A DNA stretch of 64,000 bases from Candidatus Thorarchaeota archaeon (GTDB lineage Archaea > Asgardarchaeota > Thorarchaeia > Thorarchaeales > Thorarchaeaceae). The position numbers and the translations under genes are program-made. The notes under the pieces were generated by a model. That model did not search any database and had not been told where the DNA came from. It saw nothing but the letters and a program-made list of their open reading frames with translations. The stretch spans positions 231,672 to 295,671 of the forward strand of contig JAFGAR010000028.1 in assembly GCA_016933575.1 (NCBI GenBank), in the 5' to 3' direction. Position 1 is the first letter of the stretch. Each line of letters begins with the position of its first letter. Below, one piece after another: positions 1-26,655 of the stretch.

Positions 1-3000
1 TAGTATGAGATGCTTCCCAGAGAAGATACACTTAAGGTCCAAGACAATGAAACACTCCCATCAGTACTTATTGTGCCAGGATTATTCAAAACTGGTCGAG
101 TGACATAGACTACCAAAGGAGTTGGATTAAATATAGTGACACCAGTAGAGTATACTACCATACTACCAGCTGAAAATCCTGCATGATATCCAACTGCAAA
201 ATCTGCGATACCATTAAAATCAAAATCGCCATAGTAGAAAGATATTACGGAATTTGTGGATGTCCTTTGGAAAATAATACTATTAGTTTCCCAATCTATT
301 ATTTGGAATTCCCCGGTCCATGCACCATTAGCATAACCAATACCTACTGCAATCTCAAAATTCTGATCAGAATCGAAGTTTGCAGCTTTTACGATATTCG
401 GGCAGATATTAGTGCCTAATGTATATGACCACAATAGATCCAAATTGTTATCATACATATTCACATAGTTGATAGTAGCATCTTGTTCTCTTAATCCTGC
501 AATAATACGCAAACTACCATTTGACGCAATTGTTGCAGTTTGTATTGATGTGACTAGAAACGGACCTAATGATATGGAATCTTGGACTTCATGAGAAGCT
601 CCATCTACAATGAAGAGAGTTCCTTCGAAGGGTGCATAAAGAGAATCTCTGCTACCAAAAATAAGTTCTAACGCCGGATCGGAATCGATATTCGCAAGAC
701 TATGATAGCCGCCTAAACAGAGCCCATATTCTGAAGATCGCCACTCTTCCGAATGTGTCTTTCCATTATACACGAGGACGAGTCCGTTAATCATATTACT
801 GCCATCCCGTTCAAAATCCGTGATGCCAATGATTTCTTGTTCACCATCTGCGTCTATATCTTCGACCCAGAGACTATACACACCATTATTGATAGGACTC
901 AACCATTCTAGTGCACCGGTTAATCCATTATAGACAGCAATACCAGCAATAGGACCAGTTTGCCACCATCCGCATGTACCAACTAATATCTCAATCTGTC
1001 CATCTTCATCAGGATCACCCAAGGCAACAACGCGGGCATATCCAGCACTTAGATAGATTGTCCGTTCTAAAGAGTGAGTTATCCCATTGTATATCTGAAT
1101 GTAACCTGTCGAACCATATCCTGGTTCTATTGCAACTATGGTTTCAGGTACACCATCAGCATCAACATCACCAGATACGATATCATGAACGATTCCAATA
1201 TTCCCAGTTTCCCAGAGGAATTCCAACGAGGGATTCGTGGGTGCTGGAACCCCAGTATCATACACTTCCATACAACCCGAGGAAAATCCTGCATGATATC
1301 CAATTGCTAGTTCTGTAAATCCATCTCCGTTGATATCCTCCACACATACCACCAGACCGGCATTCTTGTTCGGTCTTGTGTATAGCAGCGACTGGGATAC
1401 AGCATCAATGATTCGAAAATGCCCGTACCAATTCCCTGAAGCATCAGCAATACCTGCAGCGATTTCAAGCGTTGGATCAGTATCAAGGTTAGCCATTGTG
1501 ATACTGTAGGAATAGAGACCAGTACCAATGAAATATTCCCAATTGAAATTCAAACTTGTATCATAAGCACGGAGAAAGCCTGTGCCAGCCGCTTGGTCTA
1601 TGAATCCAACTACGAGATCGAGAGAACCATCAATATCATAATCAGCAGCATCGAAACACATAGTGTGCAGTGCGCCAACTACAAGTGAGTCCTGAACGGT
1701 ATGAGTAGCACCATCTACAATCCAGATTGTGTTGGTATATGGTAGGTCGTTAGCGGTACGACCACCGAAAACTAACTCCAATGCCGGATCATCGTCGAGG
1801 TTCCCTATCCAACTATAGTCACCAATTCCAAACCCGAAGCTACTGGTTTCCCATTCTATTGCCTTCGTTTGACCATCAATTATCATTACAGTTCCAGGAG
1901 TCCTGATGTTGTTTACACGTTCAGTGATCACCATTCCAATGATTTCCATTGCACCATCCGCATCGATATCTTCAACTCCAACTGTATGGAACGCTTCATG
2001 CCGCACAGTTTCCCACTCTAACGCGCCAGTCGTTCCAGAAAAGACTCTGATCCTCCCGATAGGTCCTGATTGCCAAGTACCCACAGTTCCAACCACAATT
2101 TCTATTGTTCCATCATGATCACAATCACCTAGGGCAAGGCTTCTTGCGTAACCATCAGCCATATAGATGATTCTCTCGAGTGAATGAGTCAGTCCATCGT
2201 ATACACGTACATGGCCTACACCATAGGATGATTCGATGGCAAGAACGATTTCATTTCGCCCGTCAGCATCAACATCGCCAACACGGATATCATGTACGAT
2301 TCCGATATTGCCAGTGTCCCAAGTCAATGATAGTGAAACTGGACCAGATTCATAGTTTATCACTTCAAATTCTATGCTTTGGACTACTTCACAATTACCA
2401 GCCATATCTACAGAATAGCATTCGAATAGATAGAAACCAGATTGAGCAATTGTGAGAGTTTGATCATACCGGTGCCATGGACCACCATTTAGACGATATT
2501 CAACATAGTTCGGTCCGCTTTCTTGATCCTCGCAGGATAGAGAGATATCAATAGATTCTATGTACTGCCCATTAAGATTCTGTGTTCCACCTCTGGAAAT
2601 GCTTGTTGATGGTCGAGTCTTATCGATTGAGAATATCAGATGTTTTTCCAACGACGGATTACCAAGATTGTCCACTCCATAATATCGGATATCATAGGAA
2701 TACTCATACTCCAAAGTGAACATCTCAAGGTAAGTGCAATATGTTACTCCATCTAAACTATACATGATGTAATCGAGACCTGTAGGCAAATCAAACCCCC
2801 ATATGACCACATCTACTGAACTGAGGTAGTAGTTATTCTGACCGACTACACCAAGAGCTGAAGCATAGACATTAGGCAATGTGTCATCAATCCTGAATGC
2901 ACCAATATGGTACGCACTGAATGCCCAATTTCCTGCAACATCACTAGTCCTAATATGAAGATACCAGATTCCTGATTCGAGAGTTGTAGTGAGACTTGTT

Positions 3001-6000
3001 GAGGTCGTATCGAGAATTGTATCTGGAAGAGTATCAATTTCGTGGCTCCACTCGTACGAATATCCATACACTCCACTGAACGCATCCGATGCACCAAACC
3101 ATTCAATGAACACTTCATCAATGGATGACCATGTATTGACAATGTGGGTAGAAGTGAAACTAATCGGATTCTGTGGGAACGGTGAAGGTTGATCAATAAG
3201 AATCTCGATTGGTGGATTAGTTTCGACATTGCCATTTCGGTCTGTAGATCTATAGTAGAACCAATTCTGACCATTATTGTGGATTGTTACTGGTATGGAA
3301 TACTCAATCCAGGTCACACCGTCAAAGCTGAATTCTGTAGAATAAATACCAGAGAACTCATCATTAACTTCCAAGGAAATAGTAACGGGAGAGGTGTACC
3401 AAGGTGCATTTACGACATCACCAGATGGAAAAGCCTCTGTAATCGGAGCAGTCGTATCAATCTTAATGGTAATTATCTGGTAGGGTTCAATATTTCCAGC
3501 ATTGTCGATTGATCGATAGTACAATATGTTAATTCCATTAGCAGAAACCACAATGGGATTCGAGTAGGTAATCCAGTCTATTCCATCATAGCTGTATTCA
3601 ATTCTAGCGACACCAGACACATCATCGATCGCATTAAGACTGAATTCGACATAGGTGCTATACCAGTCATCAAAACCAATTGTACCATCAAGAGTTACAG
3701 TGGTCTGAGGATATGGTTGATCCACATGTTTAAACATTGACCAGTAGTATGCCTCAATTCCAGGAACATCACCAATTTTTGTCAGGGTTCCATCATACGA
3801 TGCTTTCATTAGATTCATATTTTTATCTACGAAAATGAGGTCCCTCTTTCCATCACCATCATAGTCAATGAACTGATTCAGATTATCATAGCAGTCCTCC
3901 GAATAATACAATCGTCGTGATACATCATAGGTCCAAAGATTGGTCCCGGTTGCTAGATCCCAAAGATGGATGCGTGCATTCGTCTCAGTCCAATCATATA
4001 GTGCAACCTCGTAGAATCCATCACCATTTAGGTCGAAAATATCAATTGTGAATGAACCCCGACCCCAGAGTGGAAGTGGTGGGAGGACATCAGCGCCCGT
4101 TGTCATGTTAATATAATAAGCGTAGAGAGTTACTTCGGAATATGAAGTGGTACAAACTATTCCTGTACCGAGTGATATGAGACCAAGGTACGTCTTTATG
4201 TTTCTATCAGCATTTCCTCCAGGGAAACTTCTTTGCCACAAAAATGTACCATCGTGATCATAAGCAACGACTGGAGGTCCCCATCCCGCCACAAAGAATT
4301 CCGGTTGTGGATCTGCATCTATATTCACTACTTCAAAATCTGTCATTCCTCCACTATAAGAGTCTTGGAAGTAAAGTAATTGTGTCATAGCGAAGTTTCG
4401 TAAATCAACAACTTGTACTCGTGGTTGTCCTTGAGGATAGATTGCTGCACCAGCCATCAAGTATGCATCACGTACTCCATCGCCATTATAGTCTGCAAGG
4501 AAACCTCTATCGACTCGCCATCCAGGATTGTACTGAGCAAGAAGATTTCCATCACTATCATGAATGAATAATGTAGGTGCAACTTGTCTTGGTAGATGTT
4601 GAGTTACAATCTCCTTTATTCCATCATTATTGAGATCCTCAAAATACATCCCAAAAATGAAGGCACAGCTCACCTCAGCAGGAACCTGCCATGACCAGAG
4701 AAGACTTCCATCTTCATAGTCGAATCTCATAAGTCTGATGTAGGTTTCATATCCAGACACATACAATTCCAAATGGCCATCATTGTTTGTATCATTTAAA
4801 GCGAAAGTATGGAAGATGTATGCGGGCATGTAGGTGTCCCAAATCAAATCGAAAGCACCAGTTATGGGATTGTAGTCCTGTCTCATCACGTGACCATCAC
4901 GTGTGGTGATGATTAGAGCATTATCTGAATCTGTATACGGGAGATCAATCTTGAAATCATCTGATTTTGTAACCTCTGGATTACCTGCTACATCTGTAGC
5001 ATTGAAGTAGATTGTGAATTCACCCTGCTCAGAGAATGTGAAGGGGCCAGTATACTCAATCCAGTTGACTTCATCAAAGCTGTATGCAATTGTTTCAACA
5101 CCCAATCCTTCATCGGTGGATGTGAGGGTTATAGTGACTCCAGAAGTGAACCAATCATTATCTCCCGGGGTTCCATCAATATCGATAACAGTTACTGGTG
5201 GAGTATCGTCTTCAAGTACAGCAAACCATGAAAGTGAATTGACTTCACCGTATGCAATATTATTTACTACATCAATCCAAAGTGTAACATCGATCCATTC
5301 ACCATTCTCTAAGTGTTTGAGCTTCAGATTGGATTCTCCGGCATCATTTTGTTTGCCTTCATATGGAAGTGCAATTGTGATTGTTCCTATGTATGTTGCA
5401 GTAGTTGTAATGTCGTAGTAGTAATTACCACCAAGTTTGAAACCGGTATGTGGATGTGGTGGTGTTGTACTTGCGATGATAGTAGTTATGCCAGCTGTCA
5501 AAGTTTCATCAAATACTATAGAAACTCCAGTTTCGGAATCAACAACCTCCACATCAATTCCATACGGAGTATTTCCGAAAACCTCCACAGTAACATCCAT
5601 GCTACTAGGATTGTTATAAGCATCATTAGCCCAAAGAGTAAATACATACAAACCTGGATTTAGTCCATCAATTGCGATACTGATGGTTTCAGATTCGATT
5701 TGACCTGAATAAATAGGATTCCCATCTTTGAGAATTTCATAGGTTCCAGGATAGGGTTCAATGATATTCCAATCGAGGAAATGACCTAGTGTTCCAGCAT
5801 CATATGGATAGTAAATTTGTCCAGATATTTGAGGTCCAATGTCGTCATAGATTTCCAAAGAAATGATTTCACTAATTGCACTCCAATATTGTGGATCTCC
5901 ATCCCATCTCGAACGAATATAGTAAGTTCCCGGATCATAAATCCATGATGCAATGAATTTACCATTTGAACCTGTATTGCCAGCTGAAATCTCCTGCCAA

Positions 6001-9000
6001 TCCAGACCATCAACAGAGTACTCGATGACAACATACTTCAAATCAAGAATGGGACTAATTGTAACATTAATTGTCGCACTTGTATCGTATCGAATTGAGG
6101 TAGAAGAAATCTCTGTTATCAATGTTGTCGGATATCTCTCACTTATAGTTAATTCAAGATGATTACTGATACTGCCATAATAATGAGCATCACCAAAATA
6201 GACACACATTATATAGTAATCTCCAGAAAGTGTGGGAGTCCAGTCAATTGTAAAAACTCCATTTGAGCTAATGGCTTCACCAAATTTCTGCCATGATTCA
6301 TCATCGTAGCTCCAGTAGAATTCTGCTATATGATTATCAAGTGAAGGTGTTAACCAACCATTAATCAAGACAGTATCATCCAATATCAAGAAACTTGTTG
6401 ATGAAACAATAGATAGTTGAGTTTGTATTTTATCGACTTCCAATTCGATTTCATCACTTGTACCTGATTTGTAATTGGAATCACTTTCTATTATTGCTCT
6501 TAGATAATAATTACCTGGCTCTGGACTCAGAAGATTGTACTGAATTGCACCTAAAACAGTATTGTCAGAGAAAAGCTCAATCCAAGTTACACCGTCATTA
6601 CTTATTTGTAGTATAATTTCTCTTCCATCAACAGCTGGAATGATGGTAGATGAAATAAGAACACTTTGAGGATACACGATTGAGGAATCTGAGATTGCAA
6701 TAGTTAGGGTGACACTAATTCTATTATCGATGGTAAATACACCTGTGAATTCTGATCCAGCTCCTCCATTATTATCATTAAAAGCGATAAGAACAATGCA
6801 ATTGGTGCTTAATAGAATATCATCAGTATGTATTGGTAGACCCAAAGAATGCCCTGTTGGAGAGCAAAGAAAATCAAACGACTGAAAGGATTCAACCCAA
6901 GTTAAACCGCCGTCAATCGATATGAAAATTTTAAAATGAACCCAATCGTAATCATCATCAAAGCAATCAAAGAATAAACCAAAAACATCCTCACATATTT
7001 GACCCTCAATAGGTCCTGTTATTGAGATGATTGGTTGTCGATTAGGGAGATTGTCAATCTCAAAAGTACCAGATACAATTACACCTGTTCCGCCCCATTC
7101 GTCATCATAATGAAGCCTAAACTTCATGTTTTTAGAATCAGGAAGATCAGTCGAATCGAAAAGATACTCATGATAATAACCTTTAGCGTATTCGTATGTT
7201 GTGAAAAATGGATACCAAGTCTGTCCCAAATTAGGGGAATACTCAGCAGTATACCAAATTCTATCATAATTTGAATCACTTACATCCCAAATGAAATACC
7301 ACTCACCCGAAATTACAAGTCCCTCAGAAGGTGTAATGATAGAAACAGATGGTTCGGAATTTACTTGATTTGGATGATGTAGGTAGTTGTGGAATCCCCA
7401 AACAAATTCATCCCACGAGTAAGTAATCGAACAATCAAGTCCATCATATGGCTTATTGTAGGAAATTACGTGTTGAGGGAAATAGATTGCAATCCCGTGG
7501 GAATCTGGGTGTGCGGATTTATAGCAATGATTGATGTACGAAGCTGAATACGAGTCTAGCACAACCTGAATAGCATATTGAATCTCACTATTAGTAATCC
7601 TCAATTGGAGTTTTTCTAGGAAATCCACTAAATCCACACCACTCCCAGGATATTGGTCAGCAGTTATTCGTGCATCATATATCATAGATTCATATGAAGC
7701 GATGTTATCTAACAGTAATTGAGCTAAGTTATCTAAAGCTGGAACTAAATATTGTACGATCTCAAATATTTTGAACGCTCCCATTGTGGCGGTTGCCTCA
7801 GGGGCGAAAATATAATACTCATCAACCATAAGTGATGCGAAATCTTGTGAACTGATAGTCCCACTTGTTTCAAGAGCTGTTTGTAAACCGCTTAGTATCA
7901 AATGGTAAGGCCAACCGCCCACATAATTGATAAAAGGTGGTAATATTGATAGTTCTGGTCGTCCTTGTTCATTGTCTTCAGATGCTACAAGAATCTCCGC
8001 AGAGTTTCGTAATTGATATGCAATCTCAACCATACCCATTATACAAGCATCAAACCCAACTATATCCAATTCAATCGCTGTGTCTTCCAGAGCTTGTCCA
8101 AATTCACTCACACTCATACCTATATTGTCATTTGTACCATCTTGGAGAAGAATATTATCTGCTCCACCTCCATGATCCATAACGATAAGTGCGTAATGTT
8201 GAGCTTGAAATGTTGAAGCTGACCATTCCACGAAATTAGTGAGTGTGCGTGGATTAGCCATATCAAGCTCCGATTCTAACCATGGCACATACAACGGATC
8301 TCCTTGGAAACTTGATGATGTTTCATATTCAATGTAATAATATACCCAGAGAAGATATTCTAATCCAATAAATATGCCAGGCATATAGAACCGGAGAAAT
8401 GTATCACCATCGGACGCACCATCTTTGAGACAGATAACACTCATTTCACTATTGGAACCTATCTGTCCGATTTCCTCAAGATCATTATCAGCGAAGACAT
8501 CTAGATTATTGTCACCATCAAGATAGATAATTACAGTCCATTCAGCAGCCCATATATATGGAGAGTATCCAGAATCTTGGTTATCTTCACCAGTCCCTAT
8601 TCCACAAGTTGTTAGTTTATTAGCTTCACCAACTTGCTGATAATAATCAACAATGATATCAATCGAATGCATTCCAATATTAGAAAACACAAAAGTTTCA
8701 GATATATGAAATGAAGTTCCTAATAGTGGTACATCCCTCAAAAGATATCTGCTATATCCTTCATCAACAATAATTGCGATAGTGTAGACCTGATCAATCC
8801 AGTAATCACCACCGTTTCGGACATCAAATTCCAAAGTAAATGGCTGTCCAGAAGCTAATTTTCCAAAGAGATTATTGTAAACATCATATACTTTGATGTT
8901 TTCAAGAATAAGATCAGGACTTTTGAACCAATTTTTATCCCACCACCAATTTTGGTCTTCATCTGATTCAATTACCTCATCAGCACAATCTACATGTATC

Positions 9001-11060
9001 TCAAGAATATGATATCCAGGTCCTACATCATCACAGGGATAATAGAAGTGATGATACCCACCTGCGACGATTGTCACATCTTGGATAGTATAAAGAAGGT
9101 TTAGAGCAATCAGTTGATTTTGATCATCCCTATAATCACTCCATATCTCGATATCAAAGTTGGATGCTACAGAACCTCCAACATTGAAAACATCGAATGA
9201 AATCGAAAAGGACTCCCATCCAATTAGATTTGATGAGACCACAATATTGTCAATTGTCAAATCTGGCAGAGCAAGAATTTTCAGCGCATTATCTATCCAT
9301 ATAGAATCAACCTGTTGCCATATCCCATCCACCTGATACCAAAGTCCCCAAACGACACCATAATTGCCTGGACTAAGACCATTAAGATCGAAATATCGTT
9401 CTTGCCATTCCGGATAGCTTGGAATCCAGAGCGTAACATCATTTTCAGGGTCATCAAATGTACCGCTAGCATTGAAAAGAGATGCACCTAAACCAACGCA
9501 AATTGAAGAACCAAATGGGTTATTTATGTAGTAATTGAATTTTATGATTCCGCCTTCTACTGCAGATGTTGCATCAAGACTAACATCAAGCAAAGAGGGG
9601 AGAGGTGGATTCACTTTTACCTTGACTACACCACTCTCTCTTATGTTACCCCCTACATCCCAAACTTTCGCTTTAAAGAAATATACACCCTCCGTAAGGT
9701 CGCCAATAGGATAAGAAAATGATGATCCATCCCAAGTAGTATCAATATCCTTTACATACCAAGGCTCGGTACTACTCGAACTCTCAAAAATCACGTATGT
9801 GCTAGGATACATATCATAAGCAGTCCAAACAATCGAATAGGAACCAGAACCCTCAACGAATTCAATATCAGGAGGTGTAATTAGGATGGGAGGTGTAGTA
9901 TCTGGAGGAACATCAAGATATTTCCAATCCCAGTTATTATCTTCTTCAACTTCCCATGAACTACCAGGTATCCATGGAGATCCGGGGGTATGATCAGCAT
10001 GAATATCAAGTGAAGGAGTTCCACTTGGAATAGAATATGTTACGAAATTACTACTCCAAGTTAGACCAGCTCCAAGATAACTCCTAGTCAAATCCTTTAT
10101 GCATGACCCATAATCGCCATTTCTCCAGTTCTTCCAAAAAGAAAGATGAAAATTAGTTGCAGCCAAATTACCCATATTCTGAACTGAAAAGGAAACTGTT
10201 GTAGGACCACCCCCTACTGTTGTATTTACTAAGAAAGCAGTAACCTTAAGGTCTGGACCTCTGATTGTTATTGGTTCATCCTCATAATCAAGAGCTGTGT
10301 ATCCCTCAAAAGGACCATCCCATATTGCAAAGCGAATCATCTTAGATCCACCTATATTGTAGTTCTCTGGGTCGCCAAATTGGTCATATTGAACTCTAAA
10401 TAATCTTGAATCAGTCGCTGCATCATTTGCGTGAATTATTATTGATAGCTTGTCGTGATCTGGATCACTAAGCCAAACTCCAGGATTAATCACAACCGAA
10501 GCGCCTAGCCATACTCGTATATCAAAGTCTTCATGATTAATAATACGATACCATATTGTGAAAGTTTCTCCGACTGCAACATCATTATCACTGATATAAG
10601 ATAATGAATAGTCTAATTCAGCATCATATAGTCCTTCACCATATTCTCCAGCATGATATCCATCTGGACTAGTAAGGGAAAATTCTTCGAGCTCGAACTG
10701 CGGGAAATCTTGATTATAATGAGTTATCAAGGCTGGATTTTTGTAATCACCTGATTTTGTATCAGAGTCGCTTGTGATTTGGAAAGGAGATAATACTTCA
10801 TCTAGAGAAGGATAGGTAACAAGCATAGATTCAGGTTGTGTATATAAACTTCTATCAATTGAGTTGATGATTTTATCACTCAGATATACTTCATCGTTAT
10901 TCAAAATCGTAGATGATACAGGTATTTTAGAATCTTCTAAACTTTCCCAATCAACAATCTTCGACACATCGATTGCCACCGAAAACATCGGAGCAACCAT
11001 CAGTACAATCATCACTACAGAAATAATTCGCATTCCCACTGACCTATTCATGACACCCAT
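1..11060 (-). CDS. Giant secreted multidomain protein (>=3686 aa, C-terminus beyond left edge): signal peptide, CARDB-like Ig domains, clostripain (C11) peptidase domain, Ig-like/OmpL47-type repeats, FG-GAP/VCBS beta-propellers
   Basis: Manual translation from ATG 11060 (alternative 11051) gives MGVMNRSVGMRIISVVMIVLMVAPMFSVAID (signal peptide). The same frame reads sensibly at 8172 (LIVMDHGGGA), 8043 (DIVGFDACI), 960-1025 (ALGDPDEDGQIEILVGTCGWWQ) and 3-41 (WTLSVSSLGSISY). The ORF track lists no closed long minus ORF here, consistent with no in-frame stop before the edge. Confidence 0.9.
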   Translation of the reverse strand, partial: MGVMNRSVGMRIISVVMIVLMVAPMFSVAIDVSKIVDWESLEDSKIPVSSTILNNDEVYLSDKIINSIDRSLYTQPESMLVTYPSLDEVLSPFQITSDSDTKSGDYKNPALITHYNQDFPQFELEEFSLTSPDGYHAGEYGEGLYDAELDYSLSYISDNDVAVGETFTIWYRIINHEDFDIRVWLGASVVINPGVWLSDPDHDKLSIIIHANDAATDSRLFRVQYDQFGDPENYNIGGSKMIRFAIWDGPFEGYTALDYEDEPITIRGPDLKVTAFLVNTTVGGGPTTVSFSVQNMGNLAATNFHLSFWKNWRNGDYGSCIKDLTRSYLGAGLTWSSNFVTYSIPSGTPSLDIHADHTPGSPWIPGSSWEVEEDNNWDWKYLDVPPDTTPPILITPPDIEFVEGSGSYSIVWTAYDMYPSTYVIFESSSSTEPWYVKDIDTTWDGSSFSYPIGDLTEGVYFFKAKVWDVGGNIRESGVVKVKVNPPLPSLLDVSLDATSAVEGGIIKFNYYINNPFGSSICVGLGASLFNASGTFDDPENDVTLWIPSYPEWQERYFDLNGLSPGNYGVVWGLWYQVDGIWQQVDSIWIDNALKILALPDLTIDNIVVSSNLIGWESFSISFDVFNVGGSVASNFDIEIWSDYRDDQNQLIALNLLYTIQDVTIVAGGYHHFYYPCDDVGPGYHILEIHVDCADEVIESDEDQNWWWDKNWFKSPDLILENIKVYDVYNNLFGKLASGQPFTLEFDVRNGGDYWIDQVYTIAIIVDEGYSRYLLRDVPLLGTSFHISETFVFSNIGMHSIDIIVDYYQQVGEANKLTTCGIGTGEDNQDSGYSPYIWAAEWTVIIYLDGDNNLDVFADNDLEEIGQIGSNSEMSVICLKDGASDGDTFLRFYMPGIFIGLEYLLWVYYYIEYETSSSFQGDPLYVPWLESELDMANPRTLTNFVEWSASTFQAQHYALIVMDHGGGADNILLQDGTNDNIGMSVSEFGQALEDTAIELDIVGFDACIMGMVEIAYQLRNSAEILVASEDNEQGRPELSILPPFINYVGGWPYHLILSGLQTALETSGTISSQDFASLMVDEYYIFAPEATATMGAFKIFEIVQYLVPALDNLAQLLLDNIASYESMIYDARITADQYPGSGVDLVDFLEKLQLRITNSEIQYAIQVVLDSYSASYINHCYKSAHPDSHGIAIYFPQHVISYNKPYDGLDCSITYSWDEFVWGFHNYLHHPNQVNSEPSVSIITPSEGLVISGEWYFIWDVSDSNYDRIWYTAEYSPNLGQTWYPFFTTYEYAKGYYHEYLFDSTDLPDSKNMKFRLHYDDEWGGTGVIVSGTFEIDNLPNRQPIISITGPIEGQICEDVFGLFFDCFDDDYDWVHFKIFISIDGGLTWVESFQSFDFLCSPTGHSLGLPIHTDDILLSTNCIVLIAFNDNNGGAGSEFTGVFTIDNRISVTLTIAISDSSIVYPQSVLISSTIIPAVDGREIILQISNDGVTWIELFSDNTVLGAIQYNLLSPEPGNYYLRAIIESDSNYKSGTSDEIELEVDKIQTQLSIVSSTSFLILDDTVLINGWLTPSLDNHIAEFYWSYDDESWQKFGEAISSNGVFTIDWTPTLSGDYYIMCVYFGDAHYYGSISNHLELTISERYPTTLITEISSTSIRYDTSATINVTISPILDLKYVVIEYSVDGLDWQEISAGNTGSNGKFIASWIYDPGTYYIRSRWDGDPQYWSAISEIISLEIYDDIGPQISGQIYYPYDAGTLGHFLDWNIIEPYPGTYEILKDGNPIYSGQIESETISIAIDGLNPGLYVFTLWANDAYNNPSSMDVTVEVFGNTPYGIDVEVVDSETGVSIVFDETLTAGITTIIASTTPPHPHTGFKLGGNYYYDITTTATYIGTITIALPYEGKQNDAGESNLKLKHLENGEWIDVTLWIDVVNNIAYGEVNSLSWFAVLEDDTPPVTVIDIDGTPGDNDWFTSGVTITLTSTDEGLGVETIAYSFDEVNWIEYTGPFTFSEQGEFTIYFNATDVAGNPEVTKSDDFKIDLPYTDSDNALIITTRDGHVMRQDYNPITGAFDLIWDTYMPAYIFHTFALNDTNNDGHLELYVSGYETYIRLMRFDYEDGSLLWSWQVPAEVSCAFIFGMYFEDLNNDGIKEIVTQHLPRQVAPTLFIHDSDGNLLAQYNPGWRVDRGFLADYNGDGVRDAYLMAGAAIYPQGQPRVQVVDLRNFAMTQLLYFQDSYSGGMTDFEVVNIDADPQPEFFVAGWGPPVVAYDHDGTFLWQRSFPGGNADRNIKTYLGLISLGTGIVCTTSYSEVTLYAYYINMTTGADVLPPLPLWGRGSFTIDIFDLNGDGFYEVALYDWTETNARIHLWDLATGTNLWTYDVSRRLYYSEDCYDNLNQFIDYDGDGKRDLIFVDKNMNLMKASYDGTLTKIGDVPGIEAYYWSMFKHVDQPYPQTTVTLDGTIGFDDWYSTYVEFSLNAIDDVSGVARIEYSYDGIDWITYSNPIVVSANGINILYYRSIDNAGNIEPYQIITIKIDTTAPITEAFPSGDVVNAPWYTSPVTISLEVNDEFSGIYSTEFSFDGVTWIEYSIPVTIHNNGQNWFYYRSTDRNGNVETNPPIEILIDQPSPFPQNPISFTSTHIVNTWSSIDEVFIEWFGASDAFSGVYGYSYEWSHEIDTLPDTILDTTSTSLTTTLESGIWYLHIRTSDVAGNWAFSAYHIGAFRIDDTLPNVYASALGVVGQNNYYLSSVDVVIWGFDLPTGLDYIMYSLDGVTYCTYLEMFTLEYEYSYDIRYYGVDNLGNPSLEKHLIFSIDKTRPSTSISRGGTQNLNGQYIESIDISLSCEDQESGPNYVEYRLNGGPWHRYDQTLTIAQSGFYLFECYSVDMAGNCEVVQSIEFEVINYESGPVSLSLTWDTGNIGIVHDIRVGDVDADGRNEIVLAIESSYGVGHVRVYDGLTHSLERIIYMADGYARSLALGDCDHDGTIEIVVGTVGTWQSGPIGRIRVFSGTTGALEWETVRHEAFHTVGVEDIDADGAMEIIGMVITERVNNIRTPGTVMIIDGQTKAIEWETSSFGFGIGDYSWIGNLDDDPALELVFGGRTANDLPYTNTIWIVDGATHTVQDSLVVGALHTMCFDAADYDIDGSLDLVVGFIDQAAGTGFLRAYDTSLNFNWEYFIGTGLYSYSITMANLDTDPTLEIAAGIADASGNWYGHFRIIDAVSQSLLYTRPNKNAGLVVCVEDINGDGFTELAIGYHAGFSSGCMEVYDTGVPAPTNPSLEFLWETGNIGIVHDIVSGDVDADGVPETIVAIEPGYGSTGYIQIYNGITHSLERTIYLSAGYARVVALGDPDEDGQIEILVGTCGWWQTGPIAGIAVYNGLTGALEWLSPINNGVYSLWVEDIDADGEQEIIGITDFERDGSNMINGLVLVYNGKTHSEEWRSSEYGLCLGGYHSLANIDSDPALELIFGSRDSLYAPFEGTLFIVDGASHEVQDSISLGPFLVTSIQTATIASNGSLRIIAGLREQDATINYVNMYDNNLDLLWSYTLGTNICPNIVKAANFDSDQNFEIAVGIGYANGAWTGEFQIIDWETNSIIFQRTSTNSVISFYYGDFDFNGIADFAVGYHAGFSAGSMVVYSTGVTIFNPTPLVVYVTRPVLNNPGTISTDGSVSLSWTLSVSSLGSISY
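171..2400 (-). repeat. Tandem intragenic duplication, period about 1110 bp (370 aa), of an FG-GAP/VCBS propeller unit
   Basis: gaaaatcctgcatgatatccaa occurs at 172 and 1282. ALGDPDEDGQIEILVGTCGWWQ (about 960-1025) matches ALGDCDHDGTIEIVVGTVGTWQ (about 2070-2135), and DIDADGEQEII matches DIDADGAMEII, all at offset 1110. Confidence 0.8.
7390..8545 (-). other. Clostripain-family (peptidase C11) catalytic domain inside the giant protein
   Basis: AEWTVIIYLDGDNNL ... ELDMANPRTLTNFVEWS ... HYALIVMDHGGG (His codon 8172-8174) ... DIVGFDACIMGMVEIAYQL (Cys codon 8043-8045) ... LVASED. These match C11 signature motifs; domain boundaries are approximate. Confidence 0.85.
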
Positions 11061-11300
11061 CCTCTCATTCTCGAATTAGTAAACGAGATTCAATAGCGTC
11101 ATAAGCGATTCAGAGGTAGAATAAGAACCGTCTGTTTTTCCGAGATATCTATCGGAAATCTGAAGTGCATGCAGAATTTTGCTCAAATGTGAATTTCCTG
11201 TCATCAACGAAGGCCATATATAGGCGAAAATTCGCGGCCCAGAATAGACACGCCCTACACTTTGGGCGTTGAAAGACCGTTTTTGGTTACGGTGAAAATC

Positions 11301-12488
11301 ATGAGAGACCCAACAGGTTGGATGCGCGACGAGTACAACACACTTGTCGAGCAGAATTTAAACTGGAGAATTCGAGAACTTCAGGGTCCCAGCACCCCGA
11401 AGGCAAAGATTGATGGCAAAGAGGTCATCATGCTTTGCTCTAACAATTATCTGAACCTCAGTAATCACCCAAAACTGAAAGAGGCTGCTCTTAAGGCTAT
11501 CAAATCACATGGCGTTGGTTCAGGCTCTGTCCGTGCCATTGCGGGTACCATGGACCTCCATTTAGAATTGGAACGACGTCTAGCTAAGTTCAAAGGAGCA
11601 GAGGCGTCACTTACCTATAGTGCTGGATTTACCTGCAATGAGGGACTCATCCCACAGCTTGTTGACAAAGAAGATGCTATCATCTCAGATGAATTGAATC
11701 ACGGTTCTATCATCGATGGTGTTCGGCTTACAAAGGCCACACGTTATGTCTACAAGCACAATGATGTCGCAGATCTTGAGAGAGTCCTCAAAGAGGCTGA
11801 GAAAGAGAAGCCTAGAAGGATGCTCCTTATTACTGATGGTGTCTTTTCTATGGATGGAGACATTGCGCCTTTGGATGGTATCGTGAAAGCTGCAAAACCA
11901 TATGGTGCAATGATTTATGTGGACGATGCTCACGGGGAGGCCGTCTTAGGAAAGGGCGGTCGAGGTATTGTTTCGCACTTCAATCTCACCCATAAGGATG
12001 TCCACTTCGAGATGGGTACTTTCTCAAAGGCTTTTGGAGTCATGGGAGGGCACGTGTCAGGAAGTCGTGACATGGTGAATTACGCATTGAACAAGAGCCG
12101 TTCCTGGTTGCTTAGCGCTTCGCACCCACCAGCCACCGCAGCTGCCTGTATTGCAGCAATCGATGTCCTTGAGACCGAGGAGAAACATGTGAAAACACTC
12201 TGGGAGAATCGAGAGTATTTCATTAAGGGTCTCCAACAGATGGGATTTGACACTGGCAATAGCATGACACCAATTATTCCTGCAATGTGTGGTGAGAGCT
12301 CAAAGGCTGTTGCACTCAGTGATGGTCTTGTACAAGAGGGTATCCTCGCACTACCAATAGTCTTCCCAATGGTTTCCCGTGACAAAGCAAGAATCAGGAA
12401 CATAATGAATTCTGGTCTAACAAAAGCCCAATTGGATACTGCTTTAGCAGCCTACGAGAAAGTCGGAAAACGAGCTAAAATCATCTAG
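11301..12488 (+). CDS. kbl: PLP-dependent alpha-oxoamine synthase (glycine C-acetyltransferase / 8-amino-7-oxononanoate synthase family)
   Basis: CSNNYLNL, GSGSVRAIAGT, SDELNHGSIIDG, DGVFSMDGD, DDAHG, GTFSKAFG and ARIR motifs. ATG 11301 preferred over TTG 11262. kbl versus bioF is not certain. Confidence 0.85.
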   Translation: MRDPTGWMRDEYNTLVEQNLNWRIRELQGPSTPKAKIDGKEVIMLCSNNYLNLSNHPKLKEAALKAIKSHGVGSGSVRAIAGTMDLHLELERRLAKFKGAEASLTYSAGFTCNEGLIPQLVDKEDAIISDELNHGSIIDGVRLTKATRYVYKHNDVADLERVLKEAEKEKPRRMLLITDGVFSMDGDIAPLDGIVKAAKPYGAMIYVDDAHGEAVLGKGGRGIVSHFNLTHKDVHFEMGTFSKAFGVMGGHVSGSRDMVNYALNKSRSWLLSASHPPATAAACIAAIDVLETEEKHVKTLWENREYFIKGLQQMGFDTGNSMTPIIPAMCGESSKAVALSDGLVQEGILALPIVFPMVSRDKARIRNIMNSGLTKAQLDTALAAYEKVGKRAKII

Positions 12489-12500
12489 TGGATTATCCTA

Positions 12501-12523
12501 GGACATCTCGATATGAGATGTCC
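12501..12523 (+). terminator. Hairpin followed by a pyrimidine/T tract downstream of kbl
   Basis: ggacatctc-gatat-gagatgtcc, a perfect 9-bp stem, then acttctcgttttttcctcttt. Confidence 0.6.
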
Positions 12524-12657
12524 ACTTCTCGTTTTTTCCTCTTTAATTTGTAAGATATCATATGTAGAAGAGTATGATGTACACGGTCCTACTTCTATCT
12601 CCTTTTTTGTCCTTCGAGAGCTAATGCTTATCACTATCAATTACATTATGTAAGCCC

Positions 12658-21548: not shown

Positions 21549-23501
21549 TTAGGATACTATTTGGAGTACGCCATCTAGGACCAATTTTGTTGCAACAAAT
21601 TTCATTGCAGGAAGACTGACATTAAGTTTCCTCACAACATCCTCCAGTGAGGTCAATCCATCACACAAGTCAACAAATTTTAAAACAACCGGTCCATAGG
21701 CTTTCTCGGTCTCTTCATCCACACGACCAATCTTCTTGAGATAGCTCGTAGGTCCAATCTCGACTTTGAAATCAATCCAACCGTAAAAGTTTAGGATCTG
21801 AAGGCTTCCAATCACAGTTTCACGAGGAAGATCAAGACTACGTACTAGACCACCAACAGTATCGTTCTGTTCAATTGCGCTCTGAACTTCTACAACTGCA
21901 GACCCAACTTTTCGATTATTGAATGGCAATGGTCTGCCAGCCTCACGCGCACGAACAATATAGTCAAGACTAACAGGGCGTAGAGGTACCTTTGATAGGA
22001 CATCAAAGATGGACGACTCAAAGATGGACTGGTCTCCATTCCAGGTCTCCCAAACATCATCAAACTGGTGTTCAATATCGATAAGCAGTGAATTCAAGAT
22101 ACTGCGTTGTTCTTTTTCCTCGCTGTCATTAGTCACAATCAGAGCCATCACGAGATGCTTGGATTTCTCAACCATAACGAGATTTCCTTCATGTTCGATG
22201 GTCTCCAGCGCATTTGTTGAGATGCCATCAGTCTCTCTACCATCGATGCCACCAAAGGAGTCGAGTGCGGAGATAAGAGATGCAATAGCATTCTTGTCAA
22301 TCTCCTCATCAGAATAATTGAGGTGATATACGACCTCTGGGAGACCTTCTTTTGTAACAATAAGCATTAGATGAAGGACCTCAGAATGCTCAGGTACGAC
22401 TTCAGCTACAAGACCAGCATCAGTGGACACCACAGTATCAGTGGTCGGATTGGTCTTGGTAGTTGTCTGTTTTGTTCCTTGTGCCATCTCTGTCGATGTG
22501 CTTCCGGGTTTTAGTCCTGTGGGATCGTACGGTACATCTTCAAAACCAGTCTCTTGAGCCTGAGCTTGTTTCTCGGCTGTTCCGGGTTGCCCCATCTCCT
22601 CGGTACCCCTTCGGACTGTGATCATCTCACTAATAGGTAGGTCAGGAAGAGTGACTCCAACGGTCTTTGCAGCAACTTCAAGCATTAACCTGATGAACTC
22701 TTCACGACGGGTCTTATCTGTTGCAACCATCTGGAACGTTGGTGCTCCAAGCAGTCGTTTGATCTTCTCTGCCTTCATCGACTCAGGAAGGTCCTGTTTG
22801 TTCGCAATAATGAAGAGGGGTACTGCTGGTGCTTCTTTCTTGATATTTCGTAAGAGGGATTTGGTCTGCATGACATTTCTGAAGCTTGAATCAGTGACCA
22901 AGAAGATAACGTCAGTCCCAGAGAAGTAGAAACTCCAGAGATCTTGAAAAACAGCCTGTCCAGCGAAGTCCCAGATTGTTACAAGAAAAGTGCCGAACTG
23001 TATCGTTTCAGACGAGTCTACGGCCACATTGATGGTGGGAGTGTATCCGCCGGGGGCTGGTTCTTTACCGAATAATAGACGTAGCAGAGTAGACTTGCCA
23101 ACACCACCAGAGCCTACAAAGGATATCTTGAACCTTGTGAAGATGAGCTCTCCAAGGATGTCGTCAAGATTGTCGCGAATGTACCCAATACTGTTACCAC
23201 GTAAAGCAATGGAGATTCTTGCAGCACCTTCGCGTACACGATGCTGTATGACTCGGTCCTCATCACGACCATCAGTGACAAAGAGAAGTAGCATCTCACC
23301 ATCCACTTCAGCATGAAAGACCTTGTGTTTTTCAGCGACAAAGACAGGTATATCAGAAGCAAGACCTTCAGTAGTAGTAAGGTCTCGATAGCCTGCAAGG
23401 AAATCACTGATGTCATGTTCAAGAAAGTCGATCTTCCAGAACCTAGTTCGCACTACAACGTTGCCATCATCTTTGCCAATCAGCAATACGTTGTGAATCA
23501 T
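21549..23501 (-). CDS. Longin - Arf/Rab-like small GTPase - linker - longin - tandem winged-helix protein (Asgard eukaryotic-signature type)
   Basis: G1 GSGGVGKST, G2 YTPTI, G3 WDFAGQ, G4 ANKQD, G5 VAT. N-terminal MIHNVLLIGKDDGNVVV and internal LHLMLIVTKEGLPEVVY ... IASLISALDSF are longin-like; two C-terminal HTH-like repeats. Confidence 0.85.
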   Translation of the reverse strand: MIHNVLLIGKDDGNVVVRTRFWKIDFLEHDISDFLAGYRDLTTTEGLASDIPVFVAEKHKVFHAEVDGEMLLLFVTDGRDEDRVIQHRVREGAARISIALRGNSIGYIRDNLDDILGELIFTRFKISFVGSGGVGKSTLLRLLFGKEPAPGGYTPTINVAVDSSETIQFGTFLVTIWDFAGQAVFQDLWSFYFSGTDVIFLVTDSSFRNVMQTKSLLRNIKKEAPAVPLFIIANKQDLPESMKAEKIKRLLGAPTFQMVATDKTRREEFIRLMLEVAAKTVGVTLPDLPISEMITVRRGTEEMGQPGTAEKQAQAQETGFEDVPYDPTGLKPGSTSTEMAQGTKQTTTKTNPTTDTVVSTDAGLVAEVVPEHSEVLHLMLIVTKEGLPEVVYHLNYSDEEIDKNAIASLISALDSFGGIDGRETDGISTNALETIEHEGNLVMVEKSKHLVMALIVTNDSEEKEQRSILNSLLIDIEHQFDDVWETWNGDQSIFESSIFDVLSKVPLRPVSLDYIVRAREAGRPLPFNNRKVGSAVVEVQSAIEQNDTVGGLVRSLDLPRETVIGSLQILNFYGWIDFKVEIGPTSYLKKIGRVDEETEKAYGPVVLKFVDLCDGLTSLEDVVRKLNVSLPAMKFVATKLVLDGVLQIVS

Positions 23502-23584
23502 CTATTTCTCACGCTCTATGTTCAAGAATTCCTCATTATTCTAGGTTATCTATCTTTCTCGCTCGTTTCAAGCTTATTATGTTA

Positions 23585-25288
23585 TCATTTCTCCTTTAGA
23601 GAAACAAATCCTCGTTTATGCAACTCAGCGAAGACTTTGACAAGCACGCTGGGCTGCACTCCCATTGCATTTGATATACTCTGGATAGTTACTTCACCAT
23701 CAACGAACTTCAATATTTCTTCTAGGTTGGCATAGAGTGCCAGTGTTTCTTCATCAGTCTCCTTGATTAATGTTGGTACGTCATCTATTGAAACTCTAAG
23801 CTGGCAATCGATTGCATCCAATCTCTTGAGAAGATGAATGGCTCCAAGGATTAATTCGGGACCTTTTCCAGGTGCCAGACGAGCCATCGTAATTGACCCA
23901 TCCAATCGGGTCCACACAGCTTCGAGGAAATCCCCAACAGAAGCGTGTTCAAACCTGTCCCAGACAAGAGCTCGTTTTTGCCGTGGGGCTACTCTTTTTG
24001 GTATGTCTTCTGGAGGAAGTGTTGCCAGTAATTTTATGGTGAAGAGAGGCGACCTGAACAGGTCAGTCGGATCTTCCGAGACCTCAGGAACCTCATCAGT
24101 GAACAACTCTGGGAGGAATGAGAATCGTGTACGAAGAGACTCTACATCAGCATCCTTTCCAGTGATTAGAGTAAAGACATATTCATCACGTTCAATCGTA
24201 ATATAGCTCAGATCACCCGTTCTGAAGACCGAGGTCTCTGCGGATTTAGAGGTATCAATCCTGAAGGAGGTTATAGCGGCGACAATGTTTGGGGACATTT
24301 CAAGAAATCGTGAACGCTCCTGATAGTAGTAGCTATACGCAGCTTCACCAGTTCGTTTATCCACAACAAAGAAGGCTTGATGTCCGATGTCTTCTTCGAC
24401 CTCTTCTTTTTCCTCTAGCAGTTCGCTCTCCAGGTCCTCAAGTATCCACTTCTCACGGGCAAGTTCAGGATGTACATCACTGAAACCACCGTAAGCCATC
24501 ACCGAGAGAAGAAGCGACATGGGTTTGGGTGAAACAGAATCGCACAGATCAACACCATAACGTATCTCAAGGTCACGTGTAGTATCAAGATCCCTATCAG
24601 AACCAGGTACAACAATGATTCTTGCAGCAGACTCACTTCGAAGGCGCAAGACTACTTCTTGGATTGTATCACCCGCAGACATCTTAGAGTTCACAACTAG
24701 TGCAAATACATCCACTGATGACAGAAGTTCATTCCAGGCGATTTTGATAAGTTCTTTGAACGACATTTGGATTGCCTTGACTGAGAAGGGACCGATAGCT
24801 ATAGAGTCAGTCAGTACACTTCCGTTAGGCCGCTTGATGGACATTAGAGAATCAACTGCAATTGCTGACATGTTATCAGCAAATGATTCTGATTGTGTCA
24901 CGAAACAGATTCTCAAGGGAGTTCGCAACTCAGCCTCAGCGTCTTCAATAAAATCACCTTTGAAATCTCGAACTGAAGAGGTGTCTACTTCCTTTGTCAC
25001 AATTTTCTGTACAGATTGAATTCTAGTTATCTCATCATCAGAAAAAACATCAGAGTCACTTATAGTAATGATAATCGTTACATCATTTATCTTACCAATT
25101 GCTACTGCGTGTTGATGTACCTTGGTGAGTATGAATGGTTGAGTTGATTCTTCTTGGACTAATGTGTAGTATTCTTCAACTACTGTCAGTAGAAAATCTT
25201 CTGACAATTCCTCTTTCATGAATGATAGTGATGCAAGTACCTTAGACCCAAGCAAGTCATAGAGGAGTGTACTAGCTATCACGACCAT
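23585..25288 (-). CDS. Paralog of the neighbouring GTPase protein with a degenerate (pseudo-)GTPase domain: longin - pseudoG - longin - wH - wH
   Basis: LRICFVTQSESFAD aligns with FKISFVGSGGVGKS, DSIAIGPFSVKAIQ with ETIQFGTFLVTIWD, and WNELLSSVDVFALVVNS with WSFYFSGTDVIFLVTDS. Second longin AFFVVDKRTGEAAYSYYY; tail repeats LDGSITMARLA and VDGEVTIQSIS. Confidence 0.75.
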   Translation of the reverse strand: MVVIASTLLYDLLGSKVLASLSFMKEELSEDFLLTVVEEYYTLVQEESTQPFILTKVHQHAVAIGKINDVTIIITISDSDVFSDDEITRIQSVQKIVTKEVDTSSVRDFKGDFIEDAEAELRTPLRICFVTQSESFADNMSAIAVDSLMSIKRPNGSVLTDSIAIGPFSVKAIQMSFKELIKIAWNELLSSVDVFALVVNSKMSAGDTIQEVVLRLRSESAARIIVVPGSDRDLDTTRDLEIRYGVDLCDSVSPKPMSLLLSVMAYGGFSDVHPELAREKWILEDLESELLEEKEEVEEDIGHQAFFVVDKRTGEAAYSYYYQERSRFLEMSPNIVAAITSFRIDTSKSAETSVFRTGDLSYITIERDEYVFTLITGKDADVESLRTRFSFLPELFTDEVPEVSEDPTDLFRSPLFTIKLLATLPPEDIPKRVAPRQKRALVWDRFEHASVGDFLEAVWTRLDGSITMARLAPGKGPELILGAIHLLKRLDAIDCQLRVSIDDVPTLIKETDEETLALYANLEEILKFVDGEVTIQSISNAMGVQPSVLVKVFAELHKRGFVSLKEK

Positions 25289-26640: not shown

Positions 26641-26655
26641 TATCTAAACTTCAAA

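Follow-up and report, generated by a model that had tools for sequence, protein, structure and literature searches.

A giant gene of a Thorarchaeota genome joins an apparently intact C11 peptidase domain to a long chain of adhesion-type modules

The window investigated here is a stretch of 64,000 nucleotides (nt) from a Candidatus Thorarchaeota archaeon (source genome G000, contig C156, positions 231672-295671), and the subject of this report is a giant gene which starts inside the window and runs leftwards across its edge on the minus strand. The frame is a real, intact gene of this Thorarchaeota genome, and its product unites a clostripain-type peptidase domain of family C11 with CARDB, immunoglobulin (Ig)-like, OmpL47-type and FG-GAP modules. 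The gene, its domains, its catalytic residues and the predicted fold of the peptidase domain are documented by the data given below, and from these we read the protein, with moderate confidence, as an extracellular or surface-displayed protease-adhesin.

In the window the frame occupies positions 3..11060 of the minus strand. It starts with ATG and remains free of stop codons over 3,686 codons up to the window edge, both in the open-ended listing of open reading frames (ORFs) and in the translation. A single hidden minus-strand frame from 11060 past position 1 had been proposed in an initial annotation of the same DNA, and this was correct: read on in the contig, the gene comprises 17,505 nt (G000:C156:225227-242731, minus strand) and encodes 5,834 amino acids (aa), with no N and no internal stop. 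The length of at least 11 kb given at that time holds as a lower bound and underestimates the actual gene. The leftward extension of the contig, which had been recommended in order to find the stop and the anchor, adds 6,444 nt beyond the window and yields the stop at C156:225227; a C-terminal anchor was not found. An in-frame stop or frameshift had been named as the observation that would speak against the frame, and neither the computed translation nor the contig extension contains a stop.

Two in-frame ATG codons lie three codons apart (window positions 11060 and 11051). The public gene call, P0003, begins at the second one and is 5,831 aa long; a Shine-Dalgarno-like GAGAGG is located at a suitable distance of 9 nt upstream of this ATG. 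The product has a mass of 646.8 kDa and an isoelectric point of 4.05, with 824 Asp and Glu and 191 Lys and Arg among its 5,834 residues. The gene is the longest among the 45 open frames of at least 1,200 aa in the genome (3.47 Mb, 215 contigs). A Logan contig of 47,935 bp spans window positions 1-12600 without a single difference; the run may be the source sample, so that this agreement represents a check of the assembly and not an independent sample. No contig over window positions 1-12600 was obtained from two metatranscriptome runs of the same study, a result that is uninformative on expression either way. A recent transfer of the gene was also considered; its guanine-cytosine (GC) content of 0.403 is near the 0.423 of the genome and composition gives no signal of such an event.

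The protease part of our reading is carried by the C11 domain. The Peptidase_C11 profile (PF03415; MEROPS C11, clan CD) matches aa 846-1219 with 109 bits (threshold 25.8) and is covered from profile position 2 to 355 of 359. The initial annotation had described a C11 protease domain with an intact His-Gly/Ala-Cys dyad, and both profile and alignment confirm this dyad in His963 (window 8172-8174) and Cys1006 (8043-8045). Asp1004 (8049-8051) is present as well, and all three residues were checked at the level of their codons. A sequence search of the PDB with aa 801-1250 returned six matches, all of them C11 enzymes, the best one being clostripain (9cip, E 3.3e-12); in the alignment to this structure MDHGGG falls on the clostripain motif NHGGG and GFDAC on FDAC. 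The His, the Gly next to it and the Cys are invariant in all 28 aligned C11 sequences (the giant protein and 27 homologs), and the Asp two positions ahead of the Cys is shared by at least 90% of them. A structure prediction of the domain had been suggested as a check, and the AF2 model built here from this alignment has a mean predicted local distance difference test score (pLDDT) of 78 and a predicted template modelling score (pTM) of 0.82. It matches the clostripain fold: in a Foldseek search of the PDB, C11 peptidases occupy the first ten places (9cip_B with E 2.6e-19 and TMq 0.64), and legumains come next. The domain is thus predicted to have the caspase-like alpha/beta fold of clan CD. 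With its catalytic residues intact it is apparently a working protease, and it probably cleaves after Arg or Lys because Asp1004 stands at the S1-equivalent position, which is the sole support for this preference.

The same C11 profile, dyad, Asp and predicted fold are found in clostripain from Hathewaya histolytica (9cip) and in PmC11 (3uws), thetapain (6n9j), iotapain (6nag) and PdC11 (6mzo), the latter four being C11 peptidases of gut Bacteroidales. The studied enzymes are stand-alone proteins of 35-60 kDa, whereas the C11 domain considered here makes up 6% of a 647-kDa chain. Unlike them, the giant protein fails the clostripain equivalog (TIGR02806, 45.9 bits with a cut-off of 550), has two extra insertions and contains no Lys or Arg from the catalytic His to the Cys.

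The domain layout was derived from profile scans of the whole protein and of 250-aa segments, and repeat units were delimited by phmmer with seed units. The features are given from the N- to the C-terminus, with window coordinates unless stated otherwise.

1..11060, minus strand: window part of the gene, aa 1-3686 (ORF listing, translation, profiles)
10971..11060, minus strand: start codon and putative signal sequence or signal anchor, aa 1-30 (sequence reading)
10266..10970, minus strand: N-terminal domain or domains without family match, aa 31-265 (no Pfam match at E<=1)
9906..10265, minus strand: CARDB-like unit 1 (PDLKV), aa 266-385 (17.9 bits, below cut-off; phmmer similarity to unit 2)
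aa 388-488, minus strand: HYR-like Ig unit (phmmer)
aa 490-595, minus strand: sandwich without assigned family
8931..9275, minus strand: CARDB unit 2 (PDLTI), aa 596-710, profile match aa 599-705 (Pfam, E 4.2e-10)
8601..8924, minus strand: third unit (PDLIL) called CARDB-like in the initial annotation, aa 713-820; of beta-sandwich size (no profile or phmmer match)
7404..8525, minus strand: Peptidase_C11, aa 846-1219 (Pfam, E 4.9e-31)
6711..7313, minus strand: two modules of about 100 aa, each with an Asp-box-like motif, aa 1250-1450 (BNR motif only, sub-threshold; conserved in the relative P0004)
5850..6713, minus strand: three Big_3_5-type Ig-like units, aa 1450-1737 (profiles, phmmer)
aa 1750-1830, minus strand: HYR-like unit (phmmer)
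5181..5543, minus strand: first copy of a repeated module termed domain X, aa 1840-1960 (repeat comparison; no Pfam match)
4941..5156, minus strand: OmpL47-type barrel unit, aa 1969-2040 (NCBIfam profile, phmmer)
3741..4928, minus strand: FG-GAP propeller block 1, aa 2045-2440, with four DxDxDG-type calcium-site-like motifs (Pfam)
2361..3668, minus strand: four OmpL47-type barrels and one unassigned module of about 100 aa, aa 2465-2900 (profile, phmmer)
1236..2348, minus strand: FG-GAP propeller block 2, aa 2905-3275 (profile, phmmer; integrin alpha-IIb match at E 0.003)
135..1229, minus strand: FG-GAP propeller block 3, aa 3278-3642 (phmmer to block 2)
G000:C156:225227-231671 (L004:1227-7671), minus strand, left of the window: aa 3687-5834 (contig extension, profiles)
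outside the window, in this order: FN3-like unit, then nine tandem HYR/PKD-like Ig units (aa 3745-4557)
outside the window: second copy of domain X (aa 4569-4686), then nine OmpL47-type barrels (aa 4699-5477)
outside the window: Ig-like units, then the C-terminal post-COAP-1 beta-barrel (aa ~5690-5830)
G000:C156:225230-225691 (L004:1230-1691), minus strand, outside the window: the C-terminal beta-barrel of about 150 aa (post-COAP-1)

A segment-wise profile search had been proposed in the initial annotation, and in ours both the C11 and the FG-GAP profiles are matched above their thresholds. The three motifs from which three CARDB-like units had been deduced are present at 10256 (PDLKV), 9266 (PDLTI) and 8918 (PDLIL), within 3 nt of where they had been placed, and the units behind them differ in standing. 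Unit 2 reaches 40.2 bits against the CARDB (PF07705) cut-off of 22.7. Unit 1 is a weak match (17.9 bits, E 0.0037) with phmmer similarity to unit 2 (iE 4.5e-6), and the third unit is unsupported, as it gives no profile match at E<=1 and no phmmer match. The expectation of at least three FG-GAP/VCBS propeller blocks is in agreement with our results: FG-GAP_3 (PF13517) matches with 91.7 bits (threshold 26.9) in three separate blocks, and FG-GAP (PF01839) with 36.1 bits. The blocks contain 11 DxDxDG-type motifs, and their length of about 370 aa with a motif spacing of about 50 aa would fit seven-bladed propellers. Blocks 2 and 3 are a tandem duplicate (phmmer iE 8.2e-104).

Ig-like and OmpL47-like spacers had likewise been anticipated. 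About 11 HYR/PKD-like Ig units occur in the whole protein, and Ig-like units were found by profile or phmmer. The OmpL47-type barrel profile (NCBIfam NF047446, cut-off 40) matches with 257 bits in five stretches of the window part and with 407 bits in nine stretches beyond it, and phmmer recovers the same 14 units. The OmpL47 equivalog (NF047441) is not reached, with 159 and 242.6 bits against 250. The two copies of domain X are related to each other at iE 9.1e-32. For aa 31-265, domain X, the Asp-box modules and the module at aa 2630-2730, Pfam gave nothing at E<=1 beyond motif-level matches, the Atlas scores did not exceed 0.82 (chance level), and there were no PDB sequence matches. As an observation on repeat structure we note that a block consisting of an HYR-like unit, domain X and an OmpL47 barrel is present twice (aa 1750-2040 and aa 4466-4774), about 2,700 residues apart.

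The argument for export comes from the N-terminus. A basic n-region with two Arg is followed by a hydrophobic stretch, aa 12-30, and by an S-V-A motif. This stretch is the sole strongly hydrophobic segment of the whole protein, with a Kyte-Doolittle mean of 2.72 over 19 residues; the next best segment has 1.57 (threshold 1.6). The signal peptide assumed in the initial annotation is consistent with these sequence features. Residues 1-30 may represent a Sec-type signal sequence, or an uncleaved signal anchor, and either would suggest export. The composition of the chain, 14% Asp and Glu and 3.3% Lys and Arg, is alike in most other large frames of the genome, and the bulk proteome contains about 10% Lys and Arg. 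A low content of Lys and Arg as self-protection from an Arg/Lys protease was considered and rejected, as most of the large acidic frames of this genome are equally poor in these residues. One must keep in mind a difference at the other end of the chain: most of the 32 Lys/Arg-poor frames of at least 1,200 aa possess a hydrophobic segment near the C-terminus, and the giant protein does not.

What is found at the C-terminus instead is a small conserved domain. It scores 39.2 bits with the post-COAP-1 profile (NCBIfam NF041523, cut-off 40) in hmmscan and 43 bits in a six-frame search of the genome, and a 224-aa fragment with 68% identity to it has been named post-COAP-1 protein by NCBI. A search with the last 154 residues of the giant protein gave 1,520 representative proteins at E<=0.001, of which 59 remain at E<=1e-30. 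In 142 of the best 150 of the 1,520 representatives (homologs within P0095-P0339) the match ends no more than 25 residues from the C-terminus; the eight exceptions carry a transmembrane helix with a basic tail (four), a sorting domain of the type IX secretion system (T9SS) type (one) or a short basic tail rich in Cys and His (three). In homologs that have a membrane anchor, the barrel adjoins it. Every named close homolog (50-79% identity) belongs to the Asgard archaea, the groups being Sifarchaeia, Thorarchaeota, Promethearchaeota, Kariarchaeaceae and Hodarchaeales, and the heads of Asgard homologs differ, including a NosD-type beta-helix, PKD, a PQQ propeller, cadherin-like repeats and a solute-binding domain. 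At 30-35% identity the homologs are bacterial and often have a T9SS domain. Frames with a match to the profile NF041523, up to 4,960 aa long, occur in 19 of 201 genomes of the phylum and, within the same family, in 13 of 43. One 4,830-aa protein of a genome of the same genus (L036:2057-16549, on contig C21 of genome G002) resembles the giant protein only in the OmpL47 stalk and the tail (1,202 residues with 36% identity); its head is different, and a C11 domain is absent.

The AF2 model of the tail (pLDDT 90.1, pTM 0.80) is all-beta with nine strands. Foldseek gave no PDB match for it at E<=0.001. VIA-align related it to eight-stranded barrels (OprF N-domain, OmpW, NspA) with Z 9.3-8.7, slightly above the stated background, and to soluble barrels (avidins, HpuA/TbpB, hemophilin) with Z 6-7. 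We read the tail as a small meander barrel on the basis of this model. A membrane barrel was rejected: in our reading of the sequence the strands alternate with charged residues, and archaea are not known to have an outer membrane. In the literature searched there was no paper on the post-COAP-1 domain. The position at the C-terminus in 142 of 150 proteins, and the identity of 50-79% across Thor-, Sif-, Hod-, Kari- and Promethearchaeota with differing other parts, led us to a further proposal which we put forward tentatively and consider unlikely as it stands: the barrel might serve for attachment or sorting throughout the Asgard archaea, as a module that has not been described so far and that together with the OmpL47 stalk displays interchangeable heads far from the cell, so that one could speak of stalked exoproteins. 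The avoidance of N-glycosylation sequons in part of the family, described below, could then mean that such chains must stay free of glycans. The copy number speaks against the proposal, as a general sorting signal would hardly be limited to one copy in G000 and one or two per genome in relatives.

In the size range of 3,208-10,210 aa, the C11 region has matches in five proteins, namely the giant protein itself, P0004 and three distant ones with 26-31% identity. P0004 has 4,735 aa, is 52% identical in the C11 region and keeps the His, Asp and Cys. Its cluster mate P0074 (4,748 aa) is encoded on a 184-kb contig. Both are collinear with the giant protein, with 47% identity in the head (aa 270-1447), 46% in the tail (aa 4944-5834) and 45% overall, and both are without the tandem propeller pair (aa 2905-3642). 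Pfam gave no match for the ten ORFs neighbouring the gene of this relative, and there is no synteny between them and the locus described here. A further 66 shorter proteins match the C11 region, many of which join C11 to FG-GAP, CARDB, PKD or carboxypeptidase-regulatory-like modules; the names of these shorter homologs include Desulfurococcaceae, Promethearchaeota and Planctomycetota. Fusions of C11 with FG-GAP, CARDB or PKD recur among the 66 shorter and four giant-size homologs, some of them Asgard.

PF03415 was found in nine of 41 genomes (G000 counted). With the head (aa 266-1450) as query, matches at E<=1e-10 were obtained in 114 of 400 phylum genomes; leaving the giant gene aside, the largest open frame there has 1,836 aa. 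When metagenomes were scanned with the head alone, no relative appeared; a scan led by the alignment with P0004 found two loci, which correspond to the known relative only. Within G000 there is no second C11 domain, and in a BLAST comparison with the 45 frames of at least 1,200 aa only three were found to share HYR-like repeats with the giant protein. We therefore regard the giant form, which was encountered in G000 and in one metagenomic lineage, as an accessory gene.

Put together, these data suggest the following mechanism. A Sec-type signal sequence would export the chain. Its head, consisting of beta-sandwich and CARDB modules, would hold the C11 domain, and would be followed by a stalk of some 40 modules of beta-sandwich size (Ig-like, HYR/PKD-like and the 14 OmpL47-type barrels). 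Three FG-GAP propellers bearing putative calcium sites would interrupt this stalk, and the small beta-barrel would end the chain. The propellers and Ig-type domains may hold the protein on particles, polymers or other cells, while the C11 domain would cut proteins, probably after Arg or Lys. Peptide scavenging, self-processing and contact with partner cells, the roles named in the initial annotation, are conjectural at this point. Retention on the producing cell, if there is any, could be brought about by an uncleaved N-terminal segment or by the C-terminal barrel.

Several observations weigh against an extracellular protease-adhesin. We infer export, activity, specificity, ligand and attachment alike. 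The two insertions in the C11 domain have no counterpart in homologs, and one of them (aa ~893-927), modelled at pLDDT <50, could occlude or regulate the site. Clostripain and PmC11 are activated by cleavage of a linker between the catalytic His and Cys. None of the 44 residues from His963 to Cys1006 is Lys or Arg (P0004 has one Arg there), and an activating cleavage of this type is therefore impossible at that place. Outside aa 12-30 no 19-residue segment exceeds 1.6, so that there is no C-terminal membrane anchor, and no known archaeal sorting signal was found; because of the missing anchor, and because the N-terminal segment may be cleaved off, a location at the surface is not established.

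Furthermore, N-X-S/T sequons are depleted, with 13 seen and 45.6 expected from composition, which our model does not explain. The ratio of 0.28-0.29 is the lowest of the 45 frames of at least 1,200 aa, most Lys/Arg-poor frames having 1.2-2.6. The depletion also occurs in P0004 (8 against 31 expected) and in some, not all, proteins with the same tail. Under neutrality the ratio should be close to 1, so that something selects against sequons. Finally, no giant form was found in the 400 phylum genomes searched. Since the gene is rare, it cannot be central to the nutrition of the lineage, and the relevance to the general Asgard lifestyle proposed in the initial annotation was too broad: PF03415 is present in three of 24 genomes of the same genus, in each case in small frames of 274-424 aa.

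The main rival is a protein that serves mainly as an adhesin or cell-contact fibre, in which the C11 domain would act only in cis on its own giant chain, for maturation, shedding of the head or release from the cell, and would leave external protein undigested. Binding and stalk modules make up most of the chain, the protease lies near the N-terminal segment and hence near a possible membrane tether, and Lys815 (EANK, aa 812-815), a linker residue some 30 positions ahead of the C11 core that is invariant in P0004, is a candidate site of self-cleavage. We nevertheless consider it rather doubtful that this is the whole function. C11 domains of the same type are found in many small secreted proteins that stand alone, and also in combination with very different partners, which fits a general protease, and the few Lys and Arg (191 of 5,834) offer few sites in cis, though this scarcity is common to other large acidic frames. 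Another possibility is a device for interaction with or attack on other cells, comparable to the SPEARE proteins of Nanohaloarchaeota; the propellers would bind to a partner cell, whose surface would be opened or remodelled by the protease. Giant archaeal proteins with protease and adhesion domains have been proposed to act in cell-cell interaction (PMC6642349), interaction genes are typically accessory and strain-specific, as this one is, and varied heads are found on the conserved tail among Asgard relatives. Profile scans of the giant protein, however, revealed no pore-forming, toxin or nuclease domain, and its neighbours are housekeeping genes. The genome is of ordinary size (3.5 Mb), and Thorarchaeota are not known as symbionts. 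In our view such a device is distinctly improbable.

A chimera assembled from repeats, a decaying pseudogene or a bacterial contaminant would be no functional Thorarchaeal gene at all, and the highly repetitive protein and the state of the metagenome-assembled genome (MAG; 85.5% complete, 6.9% contamination) leave some room for this explanation. We give it hardly any credence, given a 17.5-kb frame without a stop, the identical sequence in the second assembly, the near-genomic GC content already mentioned and a full-length relative with 45% identity that keeps both architecture and active site. The 295-kb contig also contains a Thorarchaeota-type pyrophosphatase and Asgard-type GTPases, and the named close homologs of the tail are all Asgard.

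A protease-adhesin of this kind can be compared with several known systems. P0004/P0074, P0005, P0006 and P0007 are giant multidomain secreted proteins in which one C11 domain stands among adhesion-type repeats. The architecture is shared only with P0004/P0074; the other giants are 26-31% identical in the C11 domain alone and have other modules. The gingipains RgpA and Kgp of Porphyromonas gingivalis (MEROPS C25) combine a clan CD Arg/Lys protease with Ig-like and adhesin modules and a conserved C-terminal domain. As in these enzymes, a clan CD protease, Ig-like or adhesin modules and a conserved C-terminal domain are placed on one chain here, a resemblance that is functional only. In contrast to the gingipains the protease is C11 and not C25 (no C25 family is among the Pfam matches of the giant protein at E<=0.1), the archaeal host has neither an outer membrane nor a T9SS, and the chain is three times longer and has propellers. 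The FG-GAP repeats with DxDxDG resemble those of integrin alpha propellers, the match to integrin alpha-IIb being weak (E 0.003), and the giant protein has no integrin-type transmembrane tail. Long tandem Ig-like arrays are also found in bacterial fibrillar adhesins, and barrel repeats in Leptospira OmpL47, the equivalog cut-off of which is not reached as stated above. Length and layout further recall the SPEARE proteins, described in PMC6642349 as proteins of 3,000-8,500 aa with a protease and many adhesion domains, mostly extracytoplasmic. Their protease is a serine protease, and they also contain a transmembrane helix and a restriction-enzyme part located in the cytoplasm; the giant protein has none of the three. 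No paper joining Asgard archaea with FG-GAP was found in the literature searched.

Provided that the protease is active, a Thorarchaeota genome devotes its largest gene to an extracellular protease-adhesin, and a concrete, testable molecule would be at hand for the way in which some Asgard archaea gain access to particulate protein and digest it, or make contact with other cells. Taken alone the finding changes little, as C11 has already been counted in Asgard genomes. A report on Promethearchaeota lists C11 among the peptidases of MAGs (10.1101/2025.03.11.642519), and extracellular peptidases have been described as highly expressed by Asgard archaea in sediments (10.1101/858530). Adhesion-type chains with a C11 domain are frequent in metagenomes, and other uncultured microbes are already known to have this architecture. 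The most useful leads might be the conserved C-terminal barrel that caps many Asgard exoproteins, and the marked avoidance of sequons, in contrast to the other giant surface proteins of the genome.

The initial annotation had assumed an Asgard host, and the neighbourhood of the gene is in agreement with this. Upstream of the giant gene lie a divergent class I/II aminotransferase, then a Na/Ca exchanger and then, three genes away, a pyrophosphatase. The latter belongs to a cluster at 90% identity with 45 members (40 read, 13 named), and all 11 members that name an organism are assigned to Candidatus Thorarchaeota archaeon. Arf/Roc-type GTPases are encoded on the same contig. The neighbours of the giant gene are unrelated housekeeping genes.

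Some further observations concern the surroundings of the gene and the large frames of the genome. A 417-aa ORF without Pfam match (G000:C156:223236-224486, minus strand) follows the giant gene immediately downstream; it has the same orientation and lies outside the window. At window positions 21549-25288 (minus strand) a gene for a 650-aa Arf/Roc-type GTPase lies beside a 567-aa ORF without Pfam match, and at 25345-28893 (minus strand) adjoining genes for a C-5 cytosine DNA methylase and an Eco57I/MmeI-type N6 methylase-restriction protein likely form a restriction-modification pair. G000 contains 14 open frames of at least 2,000 aa; most of its large frames (e.g. on C38, C78, C150 and C45) are acidic, poor in Lys and Arg, rich in sequons and equipped with a hydrophobic segment near the C-terminus, and in the latter two features the giant protein is the exception among them.

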